Origin: Moraxella nasicaprae | GTDB lineage: Bacteria; Pseudomonadota; Gammaproteobacteria; Pseudomonadales; Moraxellaceae | Reading direction: 5' to 3' | DNA: 32,000 bases | Assembly (NCBI RefSeq): GCF_025643275.1 | Contig: NZ_CP089977.1 | Span: 1,710,001 to 1,742,000, forward strand | Part shown: one piece after another, positions 3,024 to 31,210 of the stretch | Layout: each line of letters starts with the position of its first letter | Position numbering within the stretch: position 1 is the first letter of the stretch | Program-made: the position numbers and the translations under genes | Notes under the pieces: model-generated | Told to the model about the DNA's origin: nothing | What the model saw: the letters and a program-made list of their open reading frames with translations, nothing else | Database searches by the model: none

Positions 3024-4238
3024 ATGACCAGCGTCCAAAAAATCCCTGTTATCGCCGCTTCTTGCCCAACCGATGATGGCAAGCAAGACCAATTTGCCAA
3101 TAAAATCAACCTATTAGGAATGTCCAAAGGGCAGTTGGAAACCTTTTTTGAGTCTTTGGGTGAAAAAAAGTTTCGTGCCGTGCAGGTGATGAAATGGATT
3201 TATCAGTTTGGCGTAACCGACTTTTATCAGATGAGTAATTTATCCAAAAAATTGCAAGCCATCTTAGATGATAAGGCGTGCGTTGTGCCACCTAAGGTTA
3301 AGTTTAAGCAGTTTAGTGAAGATGGCACACGAAAATGGGTCTTTGAAGTCGCTGGTGGTTCGCTGGTTGAAACGGTGCTAATTCCTGCCGAAGATAGCAA
3401 AGAATTTGGACGAAAAACCTTGTGTATCAGTTCGCAAGTGGGCTGTGCCTTGGACTGTTCATTTTGTAGTACAGGTAAACAAGGCTTTGAACGAGACTTA
3501 ACACCTGCTGAGATTATCGGTCAGCTGTGGGTTGCCAATGCTTCCTATAATGAAGGGGTGTCGCCTAATGATTATAAAAATATGGTCACCAATGTGGTGA
3601 TGATGGGCATGGGCGAGCCACTGTTAAATTATGAGCCTGTCGTTGCCAGTATGAGCCTAATGCTTGATGACAATGCTTATGGACTATCCAAACGCCGTGT
3701 TACGCTTTCTACTTCGGGTATTGTGCCAAAAATGTATGATTTGGCAAAAGACATTGATGTGGCGCTTGCCATTAGTCTGCACGCCCCCAATGACGAGCTT
3801 CGCAATGAGCTTGTGCCGATTAACAAAAAATATCCATTGGCGGATTTGATAAGAGCTGCCAAGGCCTATGTGTATGATGAAAATCCACGCCACAAAAAGC
3901 ATATTACCATTGAATATGTCATGCTAAATGGGGTCAATGATACGGACGAACACGCTTATCAATTGGTTCATTTATTAAAAGATTTGCCAAGCAAGATTAA
4001 CCTAATCCCCTTTAACCCTTTTCCGCACGCTCCTTACCAGCGGTCTAGCAACAATCGTATTCACGCCTTTTCTAATATTTTAAACAATGCAGGCTTTGTT
4101 TGTACCGTACGCCAAACAAGAGGCGATGACATTGATGCTGCTTGTGGGCAACTGGTGGGGCAGGTGGCAGATAGAACCAGACGAGCGGCTAAATGGCAAC
4201 AGAGCGTGGCAAAACGCCAACAAAATCAGCCGTCTTGA
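3024..4238 (+). CDS. rlmN: 23S rRNA/tRNA (adenine-C2)-methyltransferase, radical SAM
   Basis: Contains [35 protein letters not shown] (RlmN N-domain), [11 protein letters not shown] (radical-SAM CxxxCxxC), GMGEPL, and the C-terminal DIDAACGQL. Start chosen at ATG 3024 rather than TTG 3003. Confidence 0.95.
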
Positions 4239-4266
4239 TTTGCCAAAGTGTGTAAAGGTTGCTAGA

Positions 4267-4917
4267 ATGAGATGGTCTTTTGTTGGTAAAAAAATACTCA
4301 GCATCACTCCGGGATTACTGGCGATGAGCTTGATGTGTGCTTGTCAGTCCACATCAAACCAACCCAGACACATCATGACTGATAATCACAGCAATCTGGC
4401 TGAAACCTACACCAAGCTGGCTTGGGAATATTTACAAATCGGTCGAATCGATGATGCCAAAAGACAGCTTGATTTAGCAATCAAGGTAAATGCTCGCCAC
4501 GCACCCGCTCATCGCATTTTGGCACAGGTATATCAGGCAACAGGCGAGCCTAAGCATGCACAGCTTGCCAAAAGCCATTATCAACAAGCACTGTCTTTGG
4601 ATAATAAGGACATGCAGACACATTATGATTATGGTGTGTATTTGACAGCTTGGCAGGACTATGTGTCGGCACTCACGCATTTTGAGCAGGCGGCAGGCGA
4701 GATTGGTTTTGATGGGCGACTGGCAGCGATTGAGAATATTGCCTATATCCGCAATATTTTGTGGGAGCGGCAGCCAACTAAGGCAAATCTGGATTTGGCA
4801 GTGCTGGCATTTGACCGAGCGATTAAGGCAGGTAGCTTAAATGCAGACTTATTAAGTCAGGCTTTGTATTTAAATATACAAAAAGATAAATACACTCAAA
4901 ATAACCCAAATGAATAG
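4267..4917 (+). CDS. pilW: type IV pilus biogenesis/stability TPR lipoprotein (PilW/PilF type)
   Basis: ATG 4267 opens MRWSFVGKKILSITPGLLAMSLMCAC, a lipoprotein-like signal peptide. TPR-like repeats follow (AWEYLQIGRIDDAKRQLDLAIKVNARHAPAH...). The position between rlmN and ispG matches Pseudomonas pilF. The track start at 4087 would overlap rlmN by about 150 nt and is rejected. Confidence 0.7.
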   Translation: MRWSFVGKKILSITPGLLAMSLMCACQSTSNQPRHIMTDNHSNLAETYTKLAWEYLQIGRIDDAKRQLDLAIKVNARHAPAHRILAQVYQATGEPKHAQLAKSHYQQALSLDNKDMQTHYDYGVYLTAWQDYVSALTHFEQAAGEIGFDGRLAAIENIAYIRNILWERQPTKANLDLAVLAFDRAIKAGSLNADLLSQALYLNIQKDKYTQNNPNE

Positions 4918-4970
4918 CGGCAATAAAAGTAAGATTTGCCATATTGTAATATTGATTGTTGGAAAATAAT

Positions 4971-6089
4971 ATGTCCCATCACACCCCCATTACTCGCCGT
5001 CCCACTCGTAAAATTATGGTGGGCAATGTCGCCATTGGTGGCGATGCTCCCATTAGCGTGCAGTCAATGACCAATACCGACACTTGCGATGTGGCGGCAA
5101 CGGTCGCCCAAATACAACGCTGTGTGGACGCAGGGGCGGATTTGATGCGTGTTTCTACCCCCACGATGGACAGTGTACAGGCGTTTGGGCAAATTCGTAA
5201 ACAGGTCAATATTCCGCTCATTGCTGATATTCATTTTGATTATAAAATCGCTTTGGCGGTGGCAGAGGTTGGGGCGGACTGCTTGCGTATCAATCCAGGC
5301 AATATCGGCAATGAGCAAAAAGTCAAAGAGGTCATCGCCTGTGCTAAACATCACGGCTTGCCGATTCGTATTGGGGTCAATGCAGGCTCACTAGAAAAAG
5401 ATTTACAAAAAAAATATGGCGAGCCGACAGGCGAGGCGATGTTAGAATCCGCCATGCGTCATATTGATATCTTAGACCGCCACGACTTTCACGATTATAA
5501 AATTTCGGTCAAGGCATCTAATGTCTTTTTGACAATGGACGCTTATCGGCTCATTTCAGCACAGGTGGATTGCCCACTTCATCTAGGCGTTACCGAAGCT
5601 GGCGTGTATCGTACTGGTACGGTAAAAAGTGCGATTGCACTTGGTGGGCTTTTGCTTGAAGGCATTGGCGATACAATGCGGATTTCGCTGGCGGCCCAGC
5701 CAGAAGAAGAGATTAAAATTGGCTTTGATATTTTAAAGTCGCTTGGTATTCGCTCTAATGGCGTGAATTTTATTGCTTGCCCGTCTTGTAGCCGTCAAGA
5801 GTTTAATGTCATTAAGGTGATGACTGAATTAGAGGCACGATTAGAGGACATTCGTGAGCCGATGGATGTGTCGGTGATTGGCTGTAAAGTCAATGGACCG
5901 GGCGAGGCAAAGGAGGCGGATATTGGTGTGGTGGGGGCAAGCCCTAATTCACTGGTGTATAAAAATGGCGATAAAAGTCATCTGATTGACACCAATAAAT
6001 TGGTGGACGAAATTGAGGCAATGGTACGAGAAAAAGCCAAAGCATTGGCAGAGAAAAGGGCGAATGAGATTTTAAGGGTATCGCAATAA
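4971..6089 (+). CDS. ispG: 4-hydroxy-3-methylbut-2-en-1-yl diphosphate synthase
   Basis: Contains [28 protein letters not shown] and [10 protein letters not shown]...GCKVNGPGE (Fe-S cysteines). ATG at 4971. Confidence 0.95.
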
Positions 6090-16086: not shown

Positions 16087-16124
16087 AATGTTGTATAGTT
16101 GAATGTTTTTTATTTGATTCTGCC

Positions 16125-16151
16125 ATAAAAAAACCGCCCTATTAAGGCGGT
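16125..16151 (-). terminator. Rho-independent terminator (minus strand)
   Basis: On the minus strand the hairpin reads ACCGCC-ttaatag-GGCGGT, followed by ttttttt (plus-strand A-run 16127-16133). Confidence 0.55.
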
Positions 16152-16174
16152 ATCAAGATTGAAATTAAGACAAT

Positions 16175-16224
16175 AAAAAAGCCAAATATTTTACGCAAAA
16201 AAGCATAAAATACTTGGCTTTTAT
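16175..16224. terminator. bidirectional terminator-like hairpin flanked by an A-run and a T-run
   Basis: gccaaatatttta (16181-16193) pairs with taaaatacttggc (16205-16217), a 13-bp stem with one mismatch. aaaaaa lies 5' and ttttatt lies 3'. The 3' arm contains the -35 of the cassette A promoter. Confidence 0.5.
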
Positions 16225-16241
16225 TATACACTAGTGTATAA
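16213..16241 (+). promoter_or_regulatory. sigma70 promoter of cassette A with an operator-like palindrome
   Basis: TTGGCT (16213-16218), a 17-nt spacer, then TATAAT (16236-16241). The perfect 18-bp palindrome ttatacactagtgtataa (16223-16240) overlaps the spacer and the -10. Confidence 0.6.
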
Positions 16242-16329
16242 TATACACAACTTGGCAAGAATGGCAGTTCTTGACTAAGGAAGCCCCCAACAAGATGTTG
16301 GGATTTTATCAACCAACAAGGAGAACGAC

Positions 16330-16446
16330 AATGCGTAACATTGTGAAAATCGCCATTATCGTTTTGCTTTGCCTGCTTTTAAAATCAAGCGGCAACTAAT
16401 AAGCAAACAAGCTGGTTCAAGGAAGAGCCAGCCCCTTGTTACCTGA
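16330..16446 (+). CDS. small hydrophobic peptide ORF of cassette A (type-I-toxin-like)
   Basis: AAGGAG (16317-16322) lies 7 nt before ATG 16330. The N-terminus is MRNIVKIAIIVLLCLL. By my count the frame runs 39 codons to TGA 16444-16446, with tail KIKRQLISKQAGSRKSQPLVT. The frame passes a T/A homopolymer junction at about 16376-16384 that I could not count with full confidence. One base fewer would give a 22-aa peptide ...LLLKSSGN* ending near 16398, colinear with cassette B. Confidence 0.4.
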
Positions 16447-16447
16447 T

Positions 16448-16476
16448 ACTTTAACCCATTTTTCAAGGAAAATCAA
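16448..16476 (-). promoter_or_regulatory. candidate antisense promoter of cassette A
   Basis: The minus strand reads TTGATT (16476-16471), a 17-nt spacer, then TAAAGT (16453-16448). The -35 sits 1 nt from the RHH start codon. Cassette B has the same geometry. Confidence 0.4.
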
Positions 16477-16477
16477 G

Positions 16478-16675
16478 ATGCCATCAATGACGCAAGCTCA
16501 ACATAAAGCAAAAAGCTCATACCGTGCCAAATCACTTAAAAACATGAGTTTGCAATTTAGCCAGCACGACAAAGAAGCCTATGAGGCATTATGCCAGCTT
16601 GAAGCGGTGTACGGCTCGGCAAGTGGGGCAATTAAACAGGCATTGATTGCACACGCCAAACAGTTGCAAAACTAA
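16478..16675 (+). CDS. ribbon-helix-helix (CopG/Arc-like) protein, cassette A
   Basis: AAGGAA lies 8 nt upstream of ATG 16478. The 65-aa product is MPSMTQAQHKAKSSYRAKSLKNMSLQFSQHDKEAYEALCQLEAVYGSASGAIKQALIAHAKQLQN, with a beta-strand then helix-helix pattern. It aligns by eye with the cassette B RHH (TxAQxxAxS...KxxSxxF). Confidence 0.6.
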   Translation: MPSMTQAQHKAKSSYRAKSLKNMSLQFSQHDKEAYEALCQLEAVYGSASGAIKQALIAHAKQLQN

Positions 16676-17222
16676 ACAAGCCCTGCCGCCACAAATCCGC
16701 CAAAACGACCCTCATTGTTTCTAAGCCGACAATGGGCAAATAGCCCTGAGCATTTGTCCTGTGTGGGGTCGGTGGTGGGTTTGCCATCTTGTGTATAGCG
16801 TTTTGTGCCTGTATAGCCGCATTCTTCGCCACGATAACGCCCACACACCGCCCAATGGCAGTAAGCAGTGATGTTTCGCACAGGGATTTTTAAGCTCTCA
16901 AAGTCGGTGGGGTTGGATAGCTCAAACTGTACAATGCCTTGTGGGTCATCGGCTGTTTTTTGCTCGATGTACCAGATTTGCTCTTTAAAATTCTGGGCAT
17001 CATTACTGGTTAGGTACTGAGCCAGCGTCTGCGTTACGGTCAGTTTCGCTCCTGCAAAGTCATCAAATCGTTGGCATAGGGCGGATATTGCCCCTTGTAT
17101 GCCGTGCCTGCTATGCTGGTTATCCATTTGATAGATGAACGATTGTAGCCGGTGGCTTTGTGGATGTTGTGGCTAAAATGCACCGTATCAGCACCCAGAA
17201 CAATATTGATGCGTAAAGACAT
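16672..17222 (-). pseudogene. phage minor tail protein L remnant (internal deletion plus frameshift)
   Basis: The C-terminal frame (16672..17127) carries the lambda gpL signature: CHWAVCGRYRGEECGYTG...DKCSGLFAHCRLRNNEGRFGGF (compare gpL CTWTYRGDECGYSG...DKCSKCLSGCKFRNNVGNFGGF). The N-terminal piece MSLRINIVLGADTVHFSH...SSIKW (from ATG 17222) is in another frame. About 30 codons between the two pieces are missing. Confidence 0.7.
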
Positions 17223-17232
17223 TACTGACTCC

Positions 17233-17260
17233 AATAAAAAAGCACTCTAATGAGTGCTTT
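17233..17260 (-). terminator. Rho-independent terminator of the 17290..17679 gene
   Basis: agcactc (17241-17247) pairs with gagtgct (17252-17258) around loop taat. The minus strand continues with ttttttatt. Confidence 0.6.
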
Positions 17261-17289
17261 TAATCTAAATTACTTTTGGCGATGGTGTG

Positions 17290-17679
17290 TTAATAAGGTG
17301 CTTTTTTTAGCATGGTTTTTGCAAACTTGACACTTGATTCTATCACCACCCACCTGCCGTCATCAAAAAGTAGCACCAGCGGTACTCGGCGTTTGCTTCT
17401 GGCAAATAAGGATAAACCGCTTAGCAATAAAGTTGCCAAGCCATTACCTGATGCAAAAGCAATGACTGTGGATAAGCCTGAAACAGTATGCACGGCATTA
17501 AGTTCACTATTAAGACTGTCGTACTGTGTATCTGTTAATACATTTGCCGCAACCAGCCTATCGTCAGCGATGACCTCCGTTTTTTTAGCCCCCAGCGGCA
17601 AAAGAACAAACCGCCCAAAGCTATAATGCAAGTCCTTACTGCTATCAAAATGCTCTGAATGTAAAATTTTTGCTTGCAT
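17290..17679 (-). CDS. hypothetical protein (129 aa), orphan
   Basis: AAGGA lies 8 nt upstream of ATG 17679 (MQAKILHSEHF...). The central segment is hydrophobic (GLSTVIAFASGNGLATLLLSGLSLF). The gene has its own terminator. No family recognised. Confidence 0.5.
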   Translation of the reverse strand: MQAKILHSEHFDSSKDLHYSFGRFVLLPLGAKKTEVIADDRLVAANVLTDTQYDSLNSELNAVHTVSGLSTVIAFASGNGLATLLLSGLSLFARSKRRVPLVLLFDDGRWVVIESSVKFAKTMLKKAPY

Positions 17680-17936
17680 ATTAAAAATCCTTACTAAGAA
17701 CTGCATCGAATGTTGCTGCCAAACAGACTGTTTGCAAAACCAAAAATCAAGAAAGTCTCTCGTGACAGGCTAAGCCAAACTTGGTCAAGTGATGATGGTA
17801 TATAACAATATTAGCACATCACATCCTCAGTAGATAAAAAGTCATCAGATGCCATGATACATCAGCCATGAGAAAGTGTCAAAACATCACTTAAATAGCG
17901 GTTTGGGATTATCTTTTCATTCGGCTTTCTGTCTGG

Positions 17937-18075
17937 CTATCCAAGTCTATACTGTCTTTTTGTGCTAAAATTAGCAGATTCTTGGTAGGGCGGAAAACCT
18001 TGCTTACCGATACGAATTTCGGCATAATTAGCGACTGATACCGTCTTTATTTTTGCGTGTGCGAATGCCACCCAT
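17937..18075 (-). pseudogene. tyrosine-integrase N-terminal remnant (frameshifted, truncated)
   Basis: Minus-strand ATG 18075 gives MGGIRTRKNKDGISR*. Skipping one A at 18039 continues as SVANYAEIRIGKQGFPPYQESANFSTKRQ... to TAG at 17939-17937. The pattern MG.IRkR.nKDGs..Y.a.IRi...G...q.s.tFstK is typical of phage integrase N-termini. No catalytic domain follows. Confidence 0.45.
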
Positions 18076-18101
18076 TTTGATGACCTTTGATGATAATTTT
18101 A

Positions 18102-18340
18102 CGCAAATTTTCCGTAAAAACTACAAAAATAATCAAAAACCCGCTAAAATCATCCAAAGTAATTTAAAATCGAAACCTTATAAAAGGCTTATATATCAAT
18201 GCTTTCCCTACAAAATCATTTAAAATCAAATACTAAAAGAATATCCATTACCCCCATGATTGATTGGATATTTGATTTATAAAATATTTTATAAATCAAT
18301 AACTTATTTTATTTTAAAATAAAATTTCCGCAAATTTTCC
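18102..18340. repeat. AT-rich region with bracketing direct repeats, two perfect palindromes and AAAATC(A/G) iterons
   Basis: cgcaaattttcc occurs at 18102-18113 and 18329-18340. A 28-bp palindrome ttgatttataaaatattttataaatcaa lies at 18272-18299. A 20-bp palindrome attttattttaaaataaaat lies at 18306-18325. Four AAAATC(A/G) copies lie between about 18145 and 18230. Confidence 0.55.
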
Positions 18341-18380
18341 ACAAAAAATAACCCCAACTAAGCATTTTGCCTAGTTGGGG
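18341..18380 (-). terminator. Rho-independent terminator of the 18400..19122 ORF
   Basis: ccccaacta (18352-18360) pairs with tagttgggg (18372-18380), a 9-bp stem. The minus strand continues with ttattttttgt. Confidence 0.75.
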
Positions 18381-18399
18381 TTAATGGTGTTATGCCAAT

Positions 18400-19122
18400 T
18401 TAGGCATTTTCATACGCCCGAGCGAGCTTATTATGATAATCAAACTTGGCATAAGCCACGCCATTATACACTTTGGCAATCGCTTGCCAGTCTTTGCGTT
18501 TCATCGCACCGCCAAGCCCTGCCGACTTTAAAAAGCCAATCGTTGCTTGCAATTGGGCTTTTTCGCTGTCATACATGGCATTGATAAAGCCTTGTAAGTT
18601 GTCAAATCCTGCCAGCTTGTGATTAAAGACCATAATCTGCCCCAGTCCCCACGAACACGCCTTTAACGCACATTCACGCACTTTGGCTTGCAAATTTTCG
18701 TCCGCATCTGGTCGCACCTTTAACAATAAATCTTGGGCATTTTGCAATCTTTGATGTTGAATGTTCTCGCCCCCTCGTTGACTGGCAGCACCTGTGTTGG
18801 GAATTTCAGGTTTTGGCATCAAAAATGCCACGGCAAGCGACACGTCCACAGAGATAGCCACCACCGCCAAAAGCGGTAAGGCGGCAGATGGATAGGTCAC
18901 CAAATAAAACCGCCCAGTTAGGCGGTTTAGATGGTCAATATCAGCATCAGACTTGGGCGTAACATCGCACGCACTGTCCCACTTGTCATGATACAGATAG
19001 GTGTTAAGCGGTAAGCCTTTAGGGTAGATTCTTTGGACGATTTCAAAAAGATTATCGCCAACAAAATCTGTCTGCTTGTCAGGCTCAAAGGCGTTATTGA
19101 TGACGGTTACAATCAAGCTCAT
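18400..19122 (-). CDS. chimeric ORF: lambda gpI-like tail assembly N-terminus fused to the C-terminal part of an N-acetylmuramidase (endolysin) domain
   Basis: The N-terminal ~115 aa (…RFYLVTYPSAALPLLAVVAISVDVSLAVAFLMPKPEIPN) have gpI-like layout: a ubiquitin-like part, a hydrophobic stretch, then LAPKxxxP. The C-terminal ~100 aa, CSWGLGQIMVFNHKLAGF...MYDSEKAQLQATIGFLKS...KDWQAIAKVYNGVAYAKFDYHNKLARAYE, match the SWGLFQIMGFNH...SE..QL.AF...W..FA..YNGP.Y..N.YD.KLA.AY signature. The N-terminal catalytic half of that domain is absent. Confidence 0.55.
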   Translation of the reverse strand: MSLIVTVINNAFEPDKQTDFVGDNLFEIVQRIYPKGLPLNTYLYHDKWDSACDVTPKSDADIDHLNRLTGRFYLVTYPSAALPLLAVVAISVDVSLAVAFLMPKPEIPNTGAASQRGGENIQHQRLQNAQDLLLKVRPDADENLQAKVRECALKACSWGLGQIMVFNHKLAGFDNLQGFINAMYDSEKAQLQATIGFLKSAGLGGAMKRKDWQAIAKVYNGVAYAKFDYHNKLARAYENA

Positions 19123-19435
19123 AATAGATAATCCTACCGTGTTGTAATTGGGCGATGTGGGGCGGTGTGGCGTGTTGTCCGCTCTCGGTTAAGTGGTGTA
19201 TCAAGCCATCTTGGTAGATGCCAATATGCACCTGTGCTCCGTGCATGACCGCCCATGTGCCATCGGTGGGCGTATCGGTGGGGTAAAAGGCGGATAGGGC
19301 GGAGGGATTGACACGCCTATTCGCCTTATCTGTCAAAAGCTCGCCAACCAATAAGCGTGGGTTGCTACCTGTCAATCTTTCATAAAAATCACAGGCGAAG
19401 TGTAGGCAGTTGTAGGTTTTGTCGTTGTATGTCAT
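19094..19435 (-). CDS. NlpC/P60-like tail tip protein (lambda gpK C-terminal-domain-like), short
   Basis: 113 aa. A Cys motif YNCLHFACDFY and downstream His residues (VHIGIY..LIHH) are arranged like a C40 peptidase. It lies directly upstream of the gpI-like ORF, as in the lambda K-I order. It lacks the MPN/JAB-like N-terminal half of gpK. Confidence 0.45.
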   Translation of the reverse strand: MTYNDKTYNCLHFACDFYERLTGSNPRLLVGELLTDKANRRVNPSALSAFYPTDTPTDGTWAVMHGAQVHIGIYQDGLIHHLTESGQHATPPHIAQLQHGRIIYYELDCNRHQ

Positions 19436-19444
19436 ATTTTATCC

Positions 19445-19480
19445 AATAAAAAACCCACCAACAAGGGTGGGTTTATTTTG
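19445..19480. terminator. bidirectional Rho-independent terminator closing the 61-aa/273-aa operon
   Basis: CCCACC (19454-19459) pairs with GGTGGG (19466-19471). aaaaaa lies on the left and tttatttt on the right, so either strand reads a hairpin followed by a U-run. Confidence 0.75.
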
Positions 19481-19486
19481 TTAATA

Positions 19487-20308
19487 TTAACTGCAGGGTT
19501 TAATCACCCTAAAGATGGCGATGGGTGTAATGCCATAACTGCTAGAAGCTCGACCCATCATTTCTTTTAAAGAGGCTGCCATCGCAAATAATGAATTACG
19601 CCACTCACTATCAGTAGGGATGGTTTCATCGTCATTAGGGATGGCGTCAAGTACACCTAAAACATAGTACTTACCATGCATCAAACTTCCATGTTTTAGG
19701 TTAATATCATGTGGATTACCAACCATCTCATCACGATTTAATGTCATCCATACAGAGCAGCCATCAACAAATAATGTTGCTTCTAGTGCATAAGGTATGG
19801 CTTTAATCAAATCAATTAAATTCTTGTTCTCGTTATTGGCTTGCTGGATTTTCTTGCTTCTGCCTTTAAGAGGTAGCCGATGATCAATTTGGCTGAGAGA
19901 CTCCTGAATCAAAACAGGCCCTATCATATCTTTTATGGTGTTAACATCAGTAATGCTGAGCTTGCCTTGTATTAATACTAACTTTCCTGCCGAATGCTCG
20001 GATAGTTCTCTTTCAATAAACCCCAATTCATCAAGTTTATCAATCATCTCTCGAGGCATGGTAGGGATGGCATCATATAGCTTTTCATTAGCCCTCAGCT
20101 CAGATGAGCCATAAGCGTGCTTGCCATTAAAAGTAGAGGGGATGCCTAAGCTTCCCTCAGTATGCCTAGTATGATTGCTGTTATTATTCTCTTTGATGCT
20201 GGTCAAAGAACCAAATCCAGTTAATTGAGCATAAAAAGATTTGATTTTCGTATTATCCAAATACAAAAAGTCAAAGATTGATTCTATGTTTTGTGATTCT
20301 TGCACCAT
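19487..20308 (-). CDS. hypothetical protein (273 aa), orphan accessory gene
   Basis: A long open frame in a visibly AT-richer segment. The product is MVQESQNIESIFDFLYLDNTKIKSFYAQLTG...GITPIAIFRVIKPCS. I recognise no motifs and see no TM segments. A terminator follows immediately. Confidence 0.7.
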   Translation of the reverse strand: MVQESQNIESIFDFLYLDNTKIKSFYAQLTGFGSLTSIKENNNSNHTRHTEGSLGIPSTFNGKHAYGSSELRANEKLYDAIPTMPREMIDKLDELGFIERELSEHSAGKLVLIQGKLSITDVNTIKDMIGPVLIQESLSQIDHRLPLKGRSKKIQQANNENKNLIDLIKAIPYALEATLFVDGCSVWMTLNRDEMVGNPHDINLKHGSLMHGKYYVLGVLDAIPNDDETIPTDSEWRNSLFAMAASLKEMMGRASSSYGITPIAIFRVIKPCS

Positions 20309-20456
20309 TATTTAAATTCTCTTGCACTTTCTTTCTTTCTTCATTGTATCTTTTGGCTTCTTGATGCATCAATCTACCCAATGTATCAAAAGCGGACTCA
20401 ATCCTTTTTGCGGCATTTTGAGTTGATGGTGTATGATATGCTGTGTGATTATGCAT
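20271..20456 (-). CDS. small helical protein (61 aa), first gene of the orphan operon
   Basis: A strong SD AAGGAGGGG lies about 7 nt upstream of ATG 20456. The product is MHNHTAYHTPSTQNAAKRIESAFDTLGRLMHQEAKRYNEERKKVQENL.... The 3' end overlaps the start of the 273-aa ORF by 38 nt. Confidence 0.5.
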   Translation of the reverse strand: MHNHTAYHTPSTQNAAKRIESAFDTLGRLMHQEAKRYNEERKKVQENLNNGARITKHRINL

Positions 20457-20735
20457 AACTCTACCCCTCCTTTTGGGTCAATAAAAGCCAAGCAAAACGA
20501 CAAATTTCACTTGACTTGTTGTAGAATATTGATGTTCACGGTAGTGCATGAACCAGCATAAAAATGAAAGAATTTCAAGCTAAAACTGACTTGTTAAGGT
20601 ATATTAGCATATCCACATTCTATTTTAAACCCCATGTTGAACAAATAATACGCACGGTTACAAAATTATTCTGTCAGCTCAATAGCAAAAAAGCCAAATA
20701 ATCACAACAATTTTATACAAAATTGCAATAATTAC

Positions 20736-20764
20736 TTGACTTTTAGTGTAGTATTTACTATAAT
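20736..20764 (+). promoter_or_regulatory. near-consensus sigma70 promoter of cassette B
   Basis: TTGACT (20736-20741), a 17-nt spacer, then TATAAT (20759-20764). It shares acTTGnCTTTTA and the heptamer TAGTGTA with the cassette A promoter. Confidence 0.7.
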
Positions 20765-20857
20765 ATGCTTATCAAGACAAGGTGCTGCAACACCAAGTCT
20801 TGATAGGTTACCCGCCACCGACCTGCTTGAGTGGTGGCGACCTTAGGAGATAAGACA

Positions 20858-20923
20858 ATGAAAGCAGTCGTAAAGCTAATCATCATTGTTATCCTGCTAC
20901 TACTAAGCAACAACGCTTACTAA
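20858..20923 (+). CDS. small hydrophobic peptide ORF of cassette B (21 aa, type-I-toxin-like)
   Basis: TTAGGAG (20843-20849) lies 8 nt before ATG 20858. The peptide is MKAVVKLIIIVILLLLSNNAY*. It parallels the cassette A peptide N-terminus (M+xxVKxxIIVxLxLL). Confidence 0.5.
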   Translation: MKAVVKLIIIVILLLLSNNAY

Positions 20924-20990
20924 CGGCAGGTAGCCTGTAAAGGCTGGGGCGGTGGGCAAGCACACCGCTTCACTCCTAAAACTTGTGATT

Positions 20991-21019
20991 ATCTTACCAA
21001 GAATGTAAGGATTTGTCAA
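20991..21019 (-). promoter_or_regulatory. candidate antisense promoter of cassette B
   Basis: The minus strand reads TTGACA (21019-21014), a 17-nt spacer, then TAAGAT (20996-20991). The -35 abuts the RHH ATG at 21020. The predicted transcript runs antisense into the peptide ORF region. Confidence 0.45.
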
Positions 21020-21226
21020 ATGCCTAAGATTGTCAAAACGCCCAAAACCAAAGCTCAAATCCAAGCCGATTCTGATGCCAAGCGTGGCGTCAAGGTGGCA
21101 AGTTATAAATTTCCTGTAGAGTTTATTGACGAGCTTGCCAGCTTGTCCGAGCAGACAGGGCTTTCACGCTCTGCTATTATTATGGCAGCGGTACAGCTTT
21201 GGGCAAACTCACAAAAATCCCCTTAA
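21020..21226 (+). CDS. ribbon-helix-helix (CopG-like) protein, cassette B
   Basis: 68 aa: MPKIVKTPKTKAQIQADSDAKRGVKVASYKFPVEFIDELASLSEQTGLSRSAIIMAAVQLW. The beta-strand KVASYKFP is followed by helix, G.SRS and helix, as in classic RHH proteins. The 3' end overlaps the convergent tail gene by 18 nt. Confidence 0.7.
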   Translation: MPKIVKTPKTKAQIQADSDAKRGVKVASYKFPVEFIDELASLSEQTGLSRSAIIMAAVQLWANSQKSP

Positions 21227-21715
21227 AGTCGGATAATCCGCCAAAGTGTATTTAATGCCCGTAGAAGTCTTATTGACCTCTTTGGCTTTGCAAGTAAATA
21301 CCGCTCCTTGTCTTTGAGGGGTGTTGTCGGTGATTTCCAGCCCCAATGCAGACACGATGGGCGAGGATAAATCACTGCTTAGATACACCCGATAATTGAC
21401 CGTGGGGCGTGTGGTGGCGTGTTTACCATTTCTTAGTCGGTCAATCTCATAAGGCATGACATCGCCTACATCGCCAATGCCGATGGTAAATGACTGCTCC
21501 AAGCTATCCGTTGATGATGACGGCTTGATGGTCAAGGGCAGATACTCATAATTGTAGTAAGTGCCGTTTTCGTGCCTTACACGCACGCCATCGGTATGAT
21601 TTCGCACAAAGCGATACGCACGGCTAAAGCTGGGGTGCGTAATCTCAATACACTCCAAGCGAACATCATCATGCCGACCAACGAGCCAGTAGTATTTTTC
21701 TGCATCTGTTGCCAT
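21209..21715 (-). CDS. phage distal tail protein, DUF1833-like (occupies the gpL position)
   Basis: 168 aa. ECIEITHPSFSRAYRFVRN...FTIGIGDVGDVM resembles my recollection of DUF1833. It is the second gene after the tape measure, and its start is coupled to the upstream stop (ATGA-type overlap at 21715). Confidence 0.5.
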   Translation of the reverse strand: MATDAEKYYWLVGRHDDVRLECIEITHPSFSRAYRFVRNHTDGVRVRHENGTYYNYEYLPLTIKPSSSTDSLEQSFTIGIGDVGDVMPYEIDRLRNGKHATTRPTVNYRVYLSSDLSSPIVSALGLEITDNTPQRQGAVFTCKAKEVNKTSTGIKYTLADYPTLRGFL

Positions 21716-22194
21716 TAAGTTCTCCGAATTTTGGGCAAGTCTGCATTCACGAGCTTTTCAAGCTGATTAAAATACGCATCTTGTTCTTCTCTTTTCATCG
21801 AATAAAGCAGGGCGATGAGTTCGTCTTGACCGACATTGACAGGGCGTGGCTTGACAACAAGCGTTAATTTGGCAGTAAAAATCTGGTTGCCCAGCGTGCT
21901 GACATTGATTTGTTCATCTGTGTAACGGCACTCATACCAGTGGTGGTCAATGTCATCTAAGAGCAGATACGCCATAAACGCACGCCCAGCGTTGGCACGC
22001 AAAAAAGAGAGCATATACTGCCACATTGGCCGAGTGCATTTATAGGTTACTGACAGATGATGTACCACGCCTACCTGTGAGCGTCTTTGGCGTGGCATTC
22101 CTGCCTGTGTTTGAGTGCTGACCACGCCAGTACTTAGGGCAAAGCCATAGCCAGAGCGATGCGGCTTTAACATGAACTTAGGCAAATCACTCAT
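21715..22194 (-). CDS. phage distal tail protein (gpM position), family unrecognised
   Basis: 159 aa. It lies immediately downstream of the tape measure, with 4-nt overlaps at both ends. Confidence 0.5.
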   Translation of the reverse strand: MSDLPKFMLKPHRSGYGFALSTGVVSTQTQAGMPRQRRSQVGVVHHLSVTYKCTRPMWQYMLSFLRANAGRAFMAYLLLDDIDHHWYECRYTDEQINVSTLGNQIFTAKLTLVVKPRPVNVGQDELIALLYSMKREEQDAYFNQLEKLVNADLPKIRRT

Positions 22195-25100
22195 AGCTTA
22201 CGCTCCAAATTGTAGTTGTTTTTTAGTGCTTTGTTAAAGCCACTGTAAGGGTCATTGACCTGCTGAGGCAGTTGGCGTGCCAGCTCTTGACCGACAATGA
22301 TGCGAATGTCGCCATTACTGTCGGTGGTCTGCTGTACTTTCTCGCCCGTGTGATTGTGGATAATCACATTGATAGCTTTGCCATTACCCATACTTGCCAA
22401 TTTATCATCTAAGGCTTTGGCGGTGTGCTTAGGTAGCACTCGTTCGCCTTTTTCTAAGTTCCAAGTGCCTGATTTTGGCACGGACATGATACCGTCATGG
22501 GCTTGACCGACAACAGGATTTTTGACCGCTCGAATATTGCTGATGATACTGGCTGTTTGTGCTGCAACACTTGCCATTGCTCCAATGTTCATCGGGAATG
22601 GGTTGGCAGCGGCAAAGGCAATCGCTTGCTGGATTGCCATGATTGAGCGGGCGATTGCGACACCTTTTTCGACGGCAAACATCGCACGATAGACTTTGGA
22701 CTGCTCACCAAACATGGACTTGGTCGCACCAGCCAGACCACTTGCGATGCCTTCTGCTGAGCTTAATGTTAGCTCACGCTTGGCGGCTTCATGGGCGGCT
22801 TTTAGGTCGTATTCCTGTTTGTCGTAGTCAGCATTGATGTCTAGCTGAGCTTGACGAGCTTGGCGGATAATGTCTAGCTGTTCTTGATACTGTTTATCAA
22901 GACTTGCCATGCCCGAGATGCCACTTGCCAACGCATTACCAGCACCTTCCAACCCTGTACCGCTAAATGTTGGCAAAGTGAACGCTTTGCCTGCCTTAAG
23001 TCCTTCTTGCAGCTTACCAAACTTATCAGCAATCATGCCTTGATTTTCGATATCTAGCAGGGCTTGCTGTTGCTCTGGACTCATGCCTGACTGTGATAAC
23101 TGCCATTTCTTCTCAGCAAGTGGGTCGCTTGCATTTTTAAGCATATACAGCTTTTTGGCAAGCTCAAGCTGAGCTTCGGCTTGCTTGGTTTCAAATAGCT
23201 TAAGCTGGGCTTGCTCCACCAAGCCGTCTTTGAGTGTTTGCGTGATGTGCAGATACTCTTTTTCGGTGGCGAGCTTGTGCTTGAGTAGGTCAATCTCATT
23301 CTTGCCGATTGCTGACCGCTCGTTAATGACCTTTTTAATATCATTTTCGACAAATTGGCGATTGGCAAGGGCGATATTGGCGTTCTTATAAGTGTCAAAC
23401 ACTTCACGGGTAATGGCAAGATACTTATCCGTGTTTTCGTACTCCCACTCCATAATCTCAATGTTTGACTTGCCGACTAGGGCGATATCTTGCTTGAGTT
23501 TACGCAAGTTGTCGATCATGCTGAGTATGCCACCCAGTCGTTGCTCTTCTTCTTTGAGTGCCAGTAATTGAGCGGTGTCCTGACCTTGATACTTGCCAAA
23601 GGCGATATCAGTGGTCAGCTCGGCAAAGGGATTGCCCGCAATTTTTTGCTGAGTAATAAAGATTGAGCGTGACAGTGACTCCATCTCAGATTCGACAGCT
23701 TTTTTGGTGTTTTCGGCCATCTTTTTGGCTTCATCAGCTGCCATTGGTGCTTTGTAGGCGATGCCAATCGCCATACCTTCCGACACCCATTCACCAATCT
23801 GTTTCATGACTCGAGAAGGGGAGTTGATGTCGAAAAAGCTCGTCACGGCATTCTTCATGCGACTTGCCATCTCACGCACTTTTGCCACAGCACCTTCGAT
23901 TTTGCTGCTGATACCGTTAATCAAACCTTGCACGATTTCAGTGCCCGCTTGACGCAGTCGTCCGCCAATGCTAGTGATGGCACTGACCATCTGACCCATG
24001 GCGTTGCGAGCGATACCGCCAAGCTGTGACAGACCGCTTTGGATAGCGGTTTTGACGCCGTTAATATCGCCACGCACCAATGCCTTGATGGCGTTAAATA
24101 TAGTCGATACAACGGTTTTTACGGCGTTAAAGCCTGCATTAAAGATAATCGCAAAGCCTGTCACACCGGCTGTCAATACTGCCTTGGCACCATTGATACC
24201 TGCTGATACGGCTGCTTTTACACCGTTCCAGACACTTTGAGCCACACTTACCAAGCCATTCCAAGCACTTGAAAAAAAGCTTGCAACGCTTGTGATAATT
24301 GGCTTAATGGCATTGATGGCAGACGCTACAGCAGATTTGACGCTGTTCCAGACGCTTGTTGCGACTGACACAATGCCTTGCCAAGCTGACGATACCGCTG
24401 ATGACAAGCCTTGCCATACCGCCACCACAGCACTAAATGCCGTCTTGGCAACAGCGGTGATGCCAGCCCATGCAGTACTTGCAATGGTTGCAATACCACT
24501 AAAGATACTGCCAATGTTCGCCACCATCTCTTGCACGGGTGCTGGCATACCGCTAAGCCAACCAAAGAATGCTTGCTTAACGCCATCAATGGCGGTACTG
24601 ACAGCGGACTTTACACTTTCCCAAATACCGCCAAACCACTCACCAATACCACTCCACACGCCTTGAATCCATTGCCATGCTTGGCTTGCATACTCAGGAA
24701 TGGCATTCCACACTTCTATCGCTTTGGCTTTGACCATATCCCAGTTGTTATACAGCCAAACGCCTGCCACAACAAGGGCAGCAATCGCCGCAACCACCGC
24801 CACAACAGGCAAACTAATCGCACCGATGGCCGTGCCCACAAGTCCTGCAATGGCAGTCAAACCACCGAGTGCCGTTGTGACAAGCGGCACAGCCAAGCCA
24901 ATTGCACCCAGTGCCGTGCCAAGCACAAGCACACCACCGACAATGCCTGTGATGGCAGTGACCATCGTCGGATTTTCTTGGGCGAATTGCTTGATGCCAT
25001 TGATGACTGGCAATAATGCTTCTGCCAATGCACCAAGTGCAGGCAAAAACGCATCGCCGATGGCGGCTTTGGCGTTTTGCGTAGCGTTCTTAAACATCTC

Positions 25101-26174
25101 CATTTTGGCAGCAGATGTATCGTTGATATTTGCCGCTTCTTGGCTCATTGAGCCTGCGTATTTTGACGCATCGCCCATCGCCTGCAAATGCTTACCGAGT
25201 GTATCAGTGCCGTTAATCAGCTGTGAGATGACAGCGATAGACTCACTGCCAAAGATATCGTTAATTGTAGCGGCTTGTGCTTCTTCGGGTAGCTTTTTGA
25301 TGGCTTCAAAGACTTTGTTAATCGTGCCAATGCTGTCTGTCTGCATACCTTTGGCAATCTCGGTATAAGACAAGCCAAGGTCGTCAAATGCGGCTTTGGC
25401 AGATTTTGACAGACTTTCGCCCTTGACCAATTGCAGCATCATGTTTTTTAGACCAGTGGCTGCCACATCTGGCTCAACTGATGTCAAGCTTGCCGCCATT
25501 GCTGCGATTTGGTCAGCTGATACGCCGGCAATCTCACCAAGCGGACCGATACGCTGTACCACTTCCATGATTTTGGCGGCAGCGTTGGGTGAGTTGTTGC
25601 CAAGATAGTTAATTTTGTCCGCCAGTGTTTCAACTTCTGCCTGCGACATTTTAAAAGCAGTACGCATTTCTGCCATTGCCTGCCCCGCTTCTTCGGCAGT
25701 AATGTCAAATGCCGTGCCCATTTTTGCAGCAGCTTCGGTGAATTTGACGATTTCGTTAGCGGCAATGCCTGACTGACCAGCTGCAGCAGCGATTTTGGCA
25801 AGTCCATCAAAGGCAATAGGCACTCGAGTGGATAACTCTTCGAGCTCAGCACGCATCTGTTTGATGCCGTCTGGTGACTCAAAATTAACCACTTTTTTGA
25901 CCTCAGCCATTGCTGATTCAAATTTCATTGCTTCATCGGTGGTCGCCTTAATACCTGCACCGATTGCCACCAAACCGACAGCAGACGCTGCACCGATGGC
26001 TTGCATGGCATCAAATGCACCTTGATGGCGTTTTTGAAAACTCTCCATTTTGGCGTGGATTTTGTCCGTTTGCTTGGCAAAGGCATTGAGTCCATCTTGA
26101 GCTTTTCGCAAGCCACGATCAAATGCCGTCGTGGTCGCTTCAAGCACAATTTGTAATTTTGATACGGTTGACAT
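22191..26174 (-). CDS. phage tail tape measure protein
   Basis: 1327 aa. The N-terminal core is TMP-like (AMKFESAMAEVKKVV...IAAAAGQSGIAANEIVKFTEAAAKMGTAFDI). A hydrophobic block spans residues ~403-475. A Trp-punctuated Ala/Ser/Val repeat array spans ~476-720. A long coiled coil follows, and the C-terminus is lambda-H-like (HDGIMSVPKSGTWNLEKGERVLP). Confidence 0.92.
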   Translation of the reverse strand: MSTVSKLQIVLEATTTAFDRGLRKAQDGLNAFAKQTDKIHAKMESFQKRHQGAFDAMQAIGAASAVGLVAIGAGIKATTDEAMKFESAMAEVKKVVNFESPDGIKQMRAELEELSTRVPIAFDGLAKIAAAAGQSGIAANEIVKFTEAAAKMGTAFDITAEEAGQAMAEMRTAFKMSQAEVETLADKINYLGNNSPNAAAKIMEVVQRIGPLGEIAGVSADQIAAMAASLTSVEPDVAATGLKNMMLQLVKGESLSKSAKAAFDDLGLSYTEIAKGMQTDSIGTINKVFEAIKKLPEEAQAATINDIFGSESIAVISQLINGTDTLGKHLQAMGDASKYAGSMSQEAANINDTSAAKMEMFKNATQNAKAAIGDAFLPALGALAEALLPVINGIKQFAQENPTMVTAITGIVGGVLVLGTALGAIGLAVPLVTTALGGLTAIAGLVGTAIGAISLPVVAVVAAIAALVVAGVWLYNNWDMVKAKAIEVWNAIPEYASQAWQWIQGVWSGIGEWFGGIWESVKSAVSTAIDGVKQAFFGWLSGMPAPVQEMVANIGSIFSGIATIASTAWAGITAVAKTAFSAVVAVWQGLSSAVSSAWQGIVSVATSVWNSVKSAVASAINAIKPIITSVASFFSSAWNGLVSVAQSVWNGVKAAVSAGINGAKAVLTAGVTGFAIIFNAGFNAVKTVVSTIFNAIKALVRGDINGVKTAIQSGLSQLGGIARNAMGQMVSAITSIGGRLRQAGTEIVQGLINGISSKIEGAVAKVREMASRMKNAVTSFFDINSPSRVMKQIGEWVSEGMAIGIAYKAPMAADEAKKMAENTKKAVESEMESLSRSIFITQQKIAGNPFAELTTDIAFGKYQGQDTAQLLALKEEEQRLGGILSMIDNLRKLKQDIALVGKSNIEIMEWEYENTDKYLAITREVFDTYKNANIALANRQFVENDIKKVINERSAIGKNEIDLLKHKLATEKEYLHITQTLKDGLVEQAQLKLFETKQAEAQLELAKKLYMLKNASDPLAEKKWQLSQSGMSPEQQQALLDIENQGMIADKFGKLQEGLKAGKAFTLPTFSGTGLEGAGNALASGISGMASLDKQYQEQLDIIRQARQAQLDINADYDKQEYDLKAAHEAAKRELTLSSAEGIASGLAGATKSMFGEQSKVYRAMFAVEKGVAIARSIMAIQQAIAFAAANPFPMNIGAMASVAAQTASIISNIRAVKNPVVGQAHDGIMSVPKSGTWNLEKGERVLPKHTAKALDDKLASMGNGKAINVIIHNHTGEKVQQTTDSNGDIRIIVGQELARQLPQQVNDPYSGFNKALKNNYNLERKL

Positions 26175-28779: not shown

Positions 28780-29124
28780 ATGTGGAATGTTATCTATAGC
28801 CCCAATTTTAGTAGTTGGCTACAAAGCCTTGATGACGACGAGCAAGACAGTGTCTATCATGGCATTGACTTGCTAGAGCAATTAGGTCCGCACTTAGGCA
28901 GACCTAATGCCGACACCATCAAAGGTAGCCAGCTTAGTAATCTAAAAGAGCTACGCATTCAGCATGATGGCAAGCCATACCGTGCTTTTTATGTCTTTGA
29001 CCCCATCCGTCAAGCCGTCATGCTGTGCGGTGGCGATAAGACAGGCGATAAGCGTTTTTATAAAAAGATGATACCGCTTGCCGAGTCCATCTATGCTGAC
29101 TATTTACAGGAGAATGACCTATGA
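28780..29124 (+). CDS. RelE/ParE-superfamily toxin, HigB/Gp49-like
   Basis: 114 aa. The motif LKELRIQHDGKPYRAFYVFDPIRQAVMLCGGDKTGDKRFYKKMIPLAESIYADYL matches the ...ELR...YR.fY.FDP.R.AilL.gGDKsG...FY...I..Ad..y..yl toxin pattern. The toxin-first order and ATGA overlap with an XRE gene fit a HigBA-type pair. Confidence 0.8.
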   Translation: MWNVIYSPNFSSWLQSLDDDEQDSVYHGIDLLEQLGPHLGRPNADTIKGSQLSNLKELRIQHDGKPYRAFYVFDPIRQAVMLCGGDKTGDKRFYKKMIPLAESIYADYLQENDL

Positions 29125-29426
29125 AAAAGTACACCACACACCGTGAGATGATGGCAAGCCTTGACCCTGCTCGCCGTGCCCGTATCGAAGAGCGTACCAA
29201 AAACGCCTTGATTGCTATTCGCCTAGCCGAGCTTCGTAAAGACGCCAACCTGTCTCAAAAAGAGCTGGCGGATAAAATCGGTGTCTCACAATCTGCCATC
29301 TCGCAGCTAGAAAACAGCGACAATGTCATCCAACTTGACACGCTGACCAAATATGTCAATGCCCTAGGTGGCAAGCTGCATCTGTCGGTAGAGCTGCCAA
29401 GCGGGCAGGCGGTACAGTTGAGCTGA
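29121..29426 (+). CDS. XRE-family HTH antitoxin (HigA-like)
   Basis: 101 aa with an HTH (LSQKELADKIGVSQSAISQLEN). The start is coupled to the toxin stop. Confidence 0.85.
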   Translation: MKKYTTHREMMASLDPARRARIEERTKNALIAIRLAELRKDANLSQKELADKIGVSQSAISQLENSDNVIQLDTLTKYVNALGGKLHLSVELPSGQAVQLS

Positions 29427-30922: not shown

Positions 30923-31210
30923 CTAAAAAGTGGGGGTGCGATAAGGGCTTAGTAATTGACGAACGGGGGCGGGTAAAAAGTTGCCAAATTCTGCCCCATT
31001 CTCGCTGTTTCTATTGTCATCAAGATAGCCTACCATGAGTAAGGTGGCGGTTTTTAGGCTTGGTAACATCTCATCGTTAATCTCGTCTGTGATGTAGTTT
31101 TTAACGGCATTTTCAGCAGTTTGCAGATAAATTGCCAAGATTGTGTCGTTACTGTCATCGTCATAACGCAGATGGTGTTTGACTTCATCAAGCGTGGCAA
31201 ACTCTGTCAT
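30923..31210 (-). CDS. gp6-like head-tail connector (DNA-packaging QLRG-type) protein
   Basis: 95 aa. TLDEVKHHLRYDDDSNDTILAIYLQTAENAVKNYI...ATLLMVGYLDDNR follows the classic gp6-like pattern. Its ATG overlaps the portal TGA (ATGA at 31207-31210). Confidence 0.7.
   Translation of the reverse strand: MTEFATLDEVKHHLRYDDDSNDTILAIYLQTAENAVKNYITDEINDEMLPSLKTATLLMVGYLDDNRNSENGAEFGNFLPAPVRQLLSPYRTPTF

Follow-up and report, generated by a model that had tools for sequence, protein, structure and literature searches.

A prophage-associated cassette of Moraxella nasicaprae with the layout of a type I toxin-antitoxin locus and a linked small protein gene

In hok/sok of plasmid R1 and in aapA1/isoA1 of Helicobacter pylori, a distal downstream sequence pairs with the Shine-Dalgarno (SD) region, which makes the full-length toxin mRNA untranslatable. 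A ribbon-helix-helix (RHH) repressor acts together with a countertranscript in CopG and RNAII of pMV158, and omega-epsilon-zeta is a three-part toxin-antitoxin (TA) system with a separate RHH regulator. The Ibs/Sib type I TA loci (Pfam PF13956; Rfam Sib) are known from Enterobacteriaceae, Pasteurellaceae and H. pylori (PMC2887945, PMC2943612), and the RNA SibC covers the ibsC open reading frame (ORF) together with its translation-initiation region (PMC2943612). Type I TA systems stabilise prophages of C. difficile (phiCD630-1; PMC7699646), and yonT of the B. subtilis prophage SPbeta is a further prophage-borne type I system (PMC2887945). Moraxellaceae are not named as hosts in the surveys of Ibs and type I TA loci that were consulted. 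Here we describe cassette A, located at about positions 16175-16675 of a 32,000-nt stretch of the Moraxella nasicaprae genome (NCBI RefSeq assembly GCF_025643275.1, contig NZ_CP089977.1, positions 1,710,001 to 1,742,000 of the forward strand; the whole stretch is called the window below), and compare it by computation with these systems and with its relatives in other Moraxella genomes and phages.

We put the probability at roughly 0.55 that the core of cassette A is that of a type I TA-like prophage moron, in which the mRNA of a small hydrophobic peptide, the candidate toxin, is locked by its own fold. That the 65-aa protein encoded directly downstream acts as a repressor is less probable than this. 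The features of the cassette are as follows, those of the transcript being taken from its minimum free energy (MFE) fold.

16123-16151, minus strand: outer intrinsic terminator-like hairpin ACCGCCTTAATAGGGCGGT with T-run (hairpin 16151 to 16133); metagenome locus L027 has a comparable element upstream of its cassette
16167-16222, minus strand: AT-rich hairpin with 20-nt arms (16177-16196 and 16203-16222) and a minus-strand T-run; left boundary of cassette A
16214-16242, plus strand: sigma-70-type promoter P(+), TTGGCT-17-TATAAT, 10/12; predicted start about 16249
16222-16243, both strands: perfect 22-bp palindrome, arms 11+11, TATTATACACT and AGTGTATAATA, over the spacer and the -10; candidate operator
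16251-16279, plus strand: 5' hairpin H1, outer CTTGG/CTAAG, inner CAAGAAT/GTTCTTG
16286-16302, plus strand: 5' hairpin H2, CCCAACA-AGA-TGTTGGG, invariant where present
16307-16321, plus strand: 5' arm of the long-range helix, core AACAAGG (16315-16321), overlapping the SD AAGGAG (16318-16323)
16331-16399, plus strand: peptide ORF of 22 codons plus TAA, MRNIVKIAIIVLLCLLLKSSGN; candidate membrane toxin of a 'KSS' subtype
16411-16432, plus strand: 3' hairpin H3, GCTGGTTC-AAGGAA-GAGCCAGC, directly upstream of the anti-SD
16434-16448, plus strand: anti-SD, the 3' arm of the long-range helix, core CCTTGTT (16434-16440); shuffle p=0.02 in cassette A
16448-16476 (read 16476 to 16448), minus strand: promoter-like site TTGATT-17-TAAAGT, abutting the ATG at 16478; predicted start about 16441
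16478-16675, plus strand: 65-aa basic protein, RHH-like by sequence pattern, with its own SD AGGA (16466-16469); its stop overlaps a convergent fragment of a phage tail-L gene

A second cassette of the window, cassette B, served for comparison.

20687-21226, plus strand: cassette B as a whole
20736-20764, plus strand: hairpin and promoter TTGACT-17-TATAAT
20843-20849, plus strand: SD context TTAGGAG, with the anti-SD CTCCTAA at 20973-20979
20858-20923, plus strand: peptide ORF MKAVVKLIIIVILLLLSNNAY
21019 to 20991, minus strand: promoter-like site TTGACA-17-TAAGAT
21020-21226, plus strand: CopG-like protein

Most of the parts of cassette A had already been placed by the initial annotation, made from the letters of the window alone. 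Its promoter TTGGCT-17-TATAAT lies 1 nt from where it was put (16213-16241), its leader hairpins CAAGAA/TTCTTG and CCCAAC/GTTGGG are shifted by 1-2 nt (to 16256-16273 and 16286-16302), and the SD AAGGAG, the 65-aa ORF and the two minus-strand terminator-like sites (16151 to 16133 and 16222 to 16177, each followed by a T-run) were all recovered. The palindrome over the -10, described as perfect over 18 bp, is perfect over 22 bp. The same order of parts recurs throughout the family: terminator hairpin, sigma-70 promoter, two 5' hairpins, SD, hydrophobic peptide of 18-22 aa, 3' hairpin, anti-SD, minus-strand promoter-like site and a protein of about 65 aa. Related cassettes were found in M. caviae, in 12 Mcat phages of M. 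catarrhalis, in 19 IMG/VR proviruses and in metagenome contigs, and five more intact A-type cassettes, besides a decayed one (L035), came from the contigs that carry A-protein homologues.

The peptide ORF reads directly in frame from the ATG at 16331 via AGC GGC AAC to the TAA at 16397-16399. The initial annotation had given it 39 codons and had suspected a frameshift variant; position 16446, where that frame was said to stop, ends a separate ORF (16369-16446), and the frameshift was rejected on the direct reading, which reveals a miscount, and on the conservation of the 22-codon frame in five other loci. The peptides of the A-type relatives (MRTIVKIVIIVLLCLLLKSSGN, MKHLIKILIIILLCLLLKSSS, MNYLIKIIIIILLCILLKSSS and MKTLLKIIIIILLCILLKSSS) share the invariant motif I-I-x-L-L-C-x-L-L-K-S-S. 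Because synonymous sites between A-type loci are near saturation (pS 0.6-1.0) while pN/pS stays at 0.08-0.37, the ORF is genuinely coding and under strong purifying selection. Two relatives have decayed. In L035 (475-688) the start codon of the peptide is changed from ATG to ATA, an early stop codon is present and the RNA fold is lost, with the downstream gene intact and carried by 13 contigs; in L019 (~130-250) an insertion disrupts the peptide ORF. Such losses are as expected for a costly toxin.

The Moraxella peptides share with the Ibs toxins a very small size (18-22 aa) and a hydrophobic composition, and those of the B-type and type-1 cassettes also end in S-x-x-A-Y and score against the Pfam family Ibs_toxin below its gathering threshold, at 22.3 bits (E=1.2e-4) for the B peptide and 17-21 bits (E up to 5.5e-3) for type-1 and the other B-types. 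The A peptide differs in ending KSSGN, in having a Cys within the hydrophobic core and in matching no Ibs profile; it is Ibs-like in size, composition and N-terminal half, yet no demonstrable member of that family, and its KSS subtype matches no profile. None of ten family peptides checked occurs in a collection of 15 billion proteins, the back-translated peptide pattern had no match in viral contigs, and NCBIfam returned nothing useful.

The predicted transcripts of both cassettes fold much better than their shuffles, with z-scores of -5.6 for A (16249-16460) and -6.3 for B (20771-20995), and they share a plan of a 5'-terminal hairpin, a second hairpin and a long-range helix between the SD region and a site past the stop, which encloses the ORF. 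The initial annotation had noticed that a downstream element, CCCCTTGTT (16432-16440), is complementary to the SD region; it pairs with AACAAGG at 16315-16321, and the complementarity is longer than was described, with 15-nt arms at 80% (16307-16321 and 16434-16448). An MFE fold containing H1, H2 and the SD:anti-SD helix around the ORF was obtained for 13/13 intact cassettes, whereas that of the decayed L035 departs from the family plan (MFE -33.7 against about -60). The SD:anti-SD complementarity extends over 6-9 nt and exceeds shuffles at p=0.0015-0.04 in 9 of 11 cassettes, and the paired contexts change in step from type to type (AACAAGG/CCTTGTT, TACAAGGA/TCCTTGTA, TTAGGAG/CTCCTAA, AAGGAGT/ACTCCTT and TAAGGAG/CTCCTTA). 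In silico, then, translation initiation is predicted to be occluded by structure, as in the toxin mRNAs of type I systems. In this SD-blocking fold, predicted in each of the 13 cassettes, the family resembles hok/sok and aapA1/isoA1. It differs from them in the lack of any sequence relationship, in having no mok-like coupling ORF and in the position of the anti-SD, which lies about 35-65 nt past the stop inside a longer operon and not at the mRNA 3' end.

Covariation was scored across six A-type transcripts in a structural alignment that was N-padded and curated by hand; 93% of its cells pair, and compensatory changes occur in 15 of its 38 pairs. Shuffling never reached these values (0/500), and moving the partner by one column reduced pairing to 44-54%. 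Six of the 13 pairs of H1 are compensated, with all of its cells (100%) paired among the A-type relatives, and so are seven of the eight pairs of H3. Alignment by MAFFT followed by RNAalifold recovered fragments of H1 and H3 only; since that alignment is not structure-aware, it was replaced. H2 is represented by a short CCC-GAAA-GGG in L023 and L029. H2 together with the following ATTTTAT (16286-16309, plus strand) was also flagged as terminator-like within the 5' untranslated region (UTR); in A and L027 it could serve as an attenuator of toxin transcription. L032/L033 lack the T-run, and L023/L029 have the shortened stem.

On the opposite strand, the best sigma-70 match in the interval between the peptide stop and the downstream ATG starts 6-16 nt from that ATG in 11 of 11 cassettes tested. 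It reaches 10/12 (p<0.01) in B, type-1 and Mcat28 and 9/12 in several others. An RNA of cassette A starting at about 16441, just outside the anti-SD, would base-pair with the anti-SD, the ORF and the SD, and would be about 200-275 nt long if it ended at the nearest convincing minus-strand terminators, the hairpins 16222-16167 and 16151-16123. The first of these, the candidate terminator of this putative antisense transcript, holds the -35 of P(+) (16214-16219) in its 3' arm, as had been noted before; it was then described as bidirectional, but scored as terminator-like on the minus strand only. In the fold predicted for the putative antisense RNA, a 9-bp hairpin made by the palindrome directly precedes the terminator hairpin. 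The convergent promoter is so placed that the predicted RNA would span the ORF and the initiation region, as SibC does on ibsC. Against this likeness stand the lack of Sib RNA homology in the cassettes and a different setting, the Moraxella cassettes being opposite-strand prophage morons and the Ibs/Sib loci tandem chromosomal repeats. A protein gene moreover always follows on the Moraxella toxin transcript; to our knowledge, the E. coli ibs/sib loci have no such downstream gene.

P(+) has an equivalent in all relatives. The palindrome over it is not matched by any of 2000 shuffles, and L023, L027, L029 and L032 retain arms of 9-14 bp despite an overall identity of ~70-75%. It is significant and conserved only where the downstream protein contains the segment KNMSLQFS (arms 9-14 bp, p<=0.002; surroundings ~69-75% identical). 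The proposal of a significant operator palindrome in every cassette was rejected in favour of its restriction to the A subgroup. M. caviae, with KNMSLTFS in its protein, keeps an ACTAGT-centred 8-mer; L035, with KQMSLNFS, has the 8-mer ACTATAGT; and the B-type loci read TAGTATTTACTA or TAGTTTAAACTA, a symmetric pair of changes. The simplest reading of these patterns is that the 65-aa protein may repress its own promoter P(+) through the palindrome.

Between the peptide ORF and the gene of about 65 aa there is neither promoter nor terminator, and the gene is also present where cassettes were found by cassette DNA alone. The A-protein family is narrow, with nine relatives (10 clusters) and seven representatives among 1.8 billion proteins. 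The protein is assigned to phrog_9399 (function unknown) and has no sequence match in the PDB, and its strand-helix-helix sequence pattern fits an RHH protein. The B protein is CopG/RHH-like by profile comparison, with 16.5 bits against Pfam RHH_1 (cut-off 20.5), E=3.7e-5 against a CopG-like PHROG family and E=7e-21 against phrog_3887 'transcriptional regulator'. The alignment of the A and B proteins offered by the initial annotation did not hold up, as BLASTP gave no match at E<=100 and hhalign of the two families, colinear over strand-helix-helix, a probability of 5%. With CopG-RNAII and omega-epsilon-zeta the cassette would share a small repressor, a palindrome over its own promoter and an antisense RNA (repressor and antisense RNA both putative here), as well as a regulator separable from the antitoxin function. 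The controlled gene is, by contrast, a presumed toxin peptide and not a replication initiator or the zeta kinase, the toxin precedes the regulator, and RHH character is supported for the B protein only. In L007 and L018, an insertion of 76-88 nt separates the cassette from the CopG-like gene and begins with the same ATGCC as the normal start; the right boundary of the cassette thus appears to lie exactly at the downstream ATG.

To place A relative to B, a whole-cassette profile of Ibs-type cassettes from other genomes was run against the 32-kb window, where it found B (E=5e-78), A (16166-16374, E=4e-14) and nothing else. When the profile was split, the signal in A was carried by the terminator/promoter block (16175-16245, E=1e-7), in which A and B have the block AAAAAAGCCAAATA in common; the SD/ORF part was marginal (E=0.083 and 0.039), with reciprocal best matches at the start of the SD-ORF segment. 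The hairpins and 3' region of the two cassettes are alike in position and shape but not in sequence. An A-type nhmmer profile gave no whole-cassette match to B, and a covariance model of A-type cassettes found B-types at the correct place and strand, weakly (L008 E=0.023; cassette B of the window E=1). These comparisons support common descent for the left halves of A and B; for the remainder it is no more than plausible. Structure-aware homology between A and B is not demonstrated.

The low similarity combined with an identical order of parts, which had been ascribed to selection on the architecture, is borne out by the shared layout, the covariation, the purifying selection and the homology at E=4e-14. 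Of the view of A as a diverged paralogue of B, kinship is supported for the left half, and a local duplication is unlikely: since cassette A sits in the remnant of a different phage (below), A and B are probably better seen as separately acquired relatives. The two kinds of cassette are linked by mosaics. Homologues of the B protein from IMG/VR and the Mcat phages accompany B-type (MKTLFKVIIIVILLLLSNNAY), type-1 (MKTTLEILVIIALLLLSYPAY) and 18-aa (MLRLTIIIALLLLSYPAY) peptides, so that type-1 and B peptides both occur with a B-family protein, and in M. caviae, L311 and L312 an Ibs-type peptide is joined to an A-family protein. This reassortment of peptide and protein types argues against the protein being a peptide-specific partner. 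Searches with the 15-mer CTAAGGAAGCCCCSA in viral and genome contigs and with a gapped 19-base pattern in metagenome contigs gave chance matches and no real cassette, and a DNA search of a plasmid collection gave no match.

In the records of the Mcat phages, annotation is limited to the downstream gene or to a spurious ORF on the opposite strand. In Mcat7 (L190, KR093631.1), a 40-aa hypothetical protein (AKI27301.1; 1083-1205, minus strand), probably a spurious call, is annotated opposite the cassette 5' UTR, and the conserved 18-aa peptide ORF MLRITIIIALLLLSYPAY is left unannotated. The family peptides are not mentioned in the literature on Ibs, T1TAdb or Mcat prophages that was surveyed, in which Ibs-like type I modules are unreported from Moraxellaceae or in a three-part form.

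The course of events that we infer, including toxicity, the antisense RNA, binding of the operator by the protein and the biological role, would run as follows. P(+) at 16214-16242 would produce an mRNA opening with two stable hairpins and encoding the 22-aa hydrophobic peptide, presumed to damage membranes. Its ribosome-binding site would be shut by the anti-SD 112 nt downstream (16307-16321 with 16434-16448), leaving the full-length mRNA translationally inert. A convergent minus-strand promoter at the ATG of the next gene would yield the antitoxin, an RNA with full complementarity to anti-SD, ORF and SD that might end in the region of the H1 complement and the -10 or at the terminators 16222-16167 and 16151-16123. 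The plus-strand transcript would run on into the 65-aa basic protein, which would probably bind the 22-bp palindrome and autorepress the operon. Once the prophage was lost or transcription ceased, the short-lived repressing components would disappear, 3' processing would open the stable mRNA, and the outcome would be post-segregational killing or abortive infection. The role of cassette A would thus probably be stabilisation of the prophage or defence of the cell. The phiCD630-1 and yonT systems likewise combine a small hydrophobic toxin and an antisense RNA on a prophage and are proposed or shown to stabilise the element; they belong to unrelated toxin families of Gram-positive hosts, with no linked regulator gene described. 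A wider proposal, which we advance tentatively, is that the family represents an undescribed modular addiction or defence unit of three parts: an exchangeable toxin (Ibs-like or KSS), a cis-antisense RNA, and a cognate repressor with an overlapping operator as an extra transcriptional lock. Such a unit may hop between Moraxella phage sites and outlive its phage, as A would have done.

Several results weigh against this account of cassette A. The minus-strand site had been taken for a promoter, and its sequence does abut the ATG at 16478, but it is weaker than that implies, with a match of 8/12 that, taken by itself, is not beyond chance (shuffle p=0.27); A-type loci in general reach 7-9/12, the -10 TAAAGT recurring among them. 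There is no clean intrinsic minus-strand terminator close behind the SD, which would make the putative antisense RNA unusually long. No Rfam family matched at gathering score across the window and no Sib RNA at E<=5 across 16100-21300, sub-threshold Rfam matches being terminator-like noise only. The covariation alignment was curated by hand to suit the fold, both strands fold about equally well, and the counts of G-U against A-C pairs (6 vs 7) do not show on which strand structure was selected. For the toxin, the A peptide has no match to Pfam Ibs_toxin (PF13956; gathering score 27 bits) even at E<=10, and reached E=0.13, rank 2 of 455 small ORFs in the window, with a profile of ten Moraxella Ibs-type peptides. 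For the repressor, an RHH fold finds no Pfam match in the A protein, its 10 relatives or 7 remote representatives, and the AlphaFold2 model, a monomer of an obligate dimer computed from a 10-sequence alignment, is all-helical, with two helices, no strand and a low pLDDT of 68, and does not decide on the fold. Outside the A subgroup, the -10 is covered by different, short inverted repeats that do no better than shuffles.

Some of these points would suit a peptide without toxicity. A lysogenic-conversion moron with a benign membrane peptide (for superinfection exclusion or envelope modification), a repressor-controlled P(+), an incidental minus-strand site and no RNA antitoxin would account for the moron-typical location and orientation, for the promoter and terminators of its own among tail genes, for the chance-level antisense promoter of A-type cassettes and for the lack of a significant Ibs match of the A peptide. 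We consider it unlikely, given that a covarying long-range helix hides the SD in every intact cassette, a hallmark of toxin mRNAs that need silence, that the B-type peptides resemble Ibs toxins, that pseudogenised copies exist and that other cassette types have a strong minus-strand site at a fixed position. It is improbable that the ORF is a leader peptide or upstream ORF which, with the RNA structures, tunes the 65-aa protein as the real cargo. It does always precede the gene of about 65 aa in the same orientation, uninterrupted by a terminator or promoter, and the 5' UTR is structured; but the peptide sequence is strongly conserved over saturated synonymous sites, unlike a leader in which the act of translation matters more, and is transmembrane-like and Ibs-like, the long-range helix shuts the short ORF and not the SD of the downstream gene, and L035 retains that gene after loss of the ORF.

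The 65-aa protein could also neutralise the peptide directly and repress the operon, in a type II-like pair with no RNA antitoxin. Tight linkage of the two genes, the UniRef label 'Antitoxin' for the protein and a palindrome placed over the -10 in the manner of autoregulated type II operons speak for this. Such specific recognition is hard to square with the free reassortment of peptides and proteins, and the peptide is almost wholly a membrane-embedded hydrophobic stretch, so that this arrangement appears highly improbable. As for the palindrome, it might be a structural element of the minus-strand transcript, where it is predicted to form the hairpin just upstream of the terminator, or a by-product of a mirrored -10, being partly made of ATTATA/TATAAT; the absence of a significant palindrome from the other cassette types would agree with either. 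This we hold to be doubtful, if less so than the alternatives above, because its centre CACTAGTG lies outside the -10 mirror and is perfect in A, L023, L027 and L029 at 69-75% identity, and because ACTAGT-centred or ACTA-containing variants go with A-family proteins even in M. caviae, with its Ibs-type peptide. The locked toxin mRNA of a type I-like moron is the reading that we prefer.

The surroundings of cassette A are those of phage remnants. A prophage, read on the minus strand, makes up the right half of the window; three of its genes are listed here, followed by the truncated gene beside cassette A.

31207-31971, minus strand: portal protein
22191-26174, minus strand: tape-measure protein
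21209-21715, minus strand: DUF1833/L-like tail protein
16672-17127, minus strand: N-terminally truncated Phage_tail_L gene (Pfam profile positions 56-205/206), convergent with cassette A

Cassette B lies directly 3' of the L-like tail gene, on the opposite strand, and cassette A directly 3' of the second, truncated L gene, which is without ~70 N-terminal residues (span noted as 16672-17127 and 17127-17290). The metagenome locus L027 is 74% identical to the window over 16123-16977 and has a full L gene of 220 aa followed by the same cassette. From the truncated L gene and this identity, cassette A is judged to sit in the truncated remnant of a different phage, adjoining the host gene lpxB. Its 65-aa protein is 100% identical to a hypothetical protein of Moraxella nasicaprae. 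Across the family, insertion points lie after tail L, between K and I, after P2 gpS, beside Q/RusA and beside KilA-N, and the cassettes are always opposite in orientation to the flanking phage genes. As is typical of phage morons, they have their own promoter and terminators, vary in position among phages and are always convergent with the neighbouring genes.

The region 16100-20700 resembles a patchwork of phage remnants, and the prophage lacks the K/I/J tail-tip genes after cassette B. An AT-rich, ORF-free segment (17890-18350, GC 0.35) contains direct repeats (18095-18123/18322-18350 and 18155-18185/18211-18241) and is flanked by a strong minus-strand terminator (18383 to 18349, 16 pairs) and an 11/12 minus-strand promoter (17882 to 17854). 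Between cassettes A and B, among non-tail genes, a DUF6414 protein is encoded (19487-20308, minus strand; Pfam E=2e-13, phrog_9699 E=2e-83); it had no match in PADLOC, which gave no matches at all. A Gp49-like (PF05973, E=2e-24) and HTH_3 (E=3e-15) pair at 28780-29426 on the plus strand, opposite to the prophage structural genes, forms a HigBA-like type II TA moron, which together with cassettes A and B makes three opposite-strand TA-like inserts in the prophage region. HicA/HicB type II pairs stand directly beside the peptide cassette in L023/L024 (332-965) and L312/L313 (442-1071), in two unrelated phage contexts, which suggests a clustering of TA and defence morons at such insertion points. 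In M. caviae (L020), an IS200/IS605-type pair of a TnpB/Cas12f-like OrfB and a Y1 transposase (3638-5206) is found ~450 nt away from the locus of the cassette.

Gene callers miss type I toxins because of their small size. Recognition of the present family extends Ibs-like toxins to the Moraxellaceae, including prophages of the human pathogen M. catarrhalis, and the reassorted modules of toxin, promoter and regulator form a natural series in which control by mRNA folding, antisense RNA and repressor can be studied. If the peptide is toxic, its 22-aa KSS type would be a compact new membrane-active sequence, and the cassette is a candidate explanation for the persistence of a dead-prophage fragment beside lpxB.

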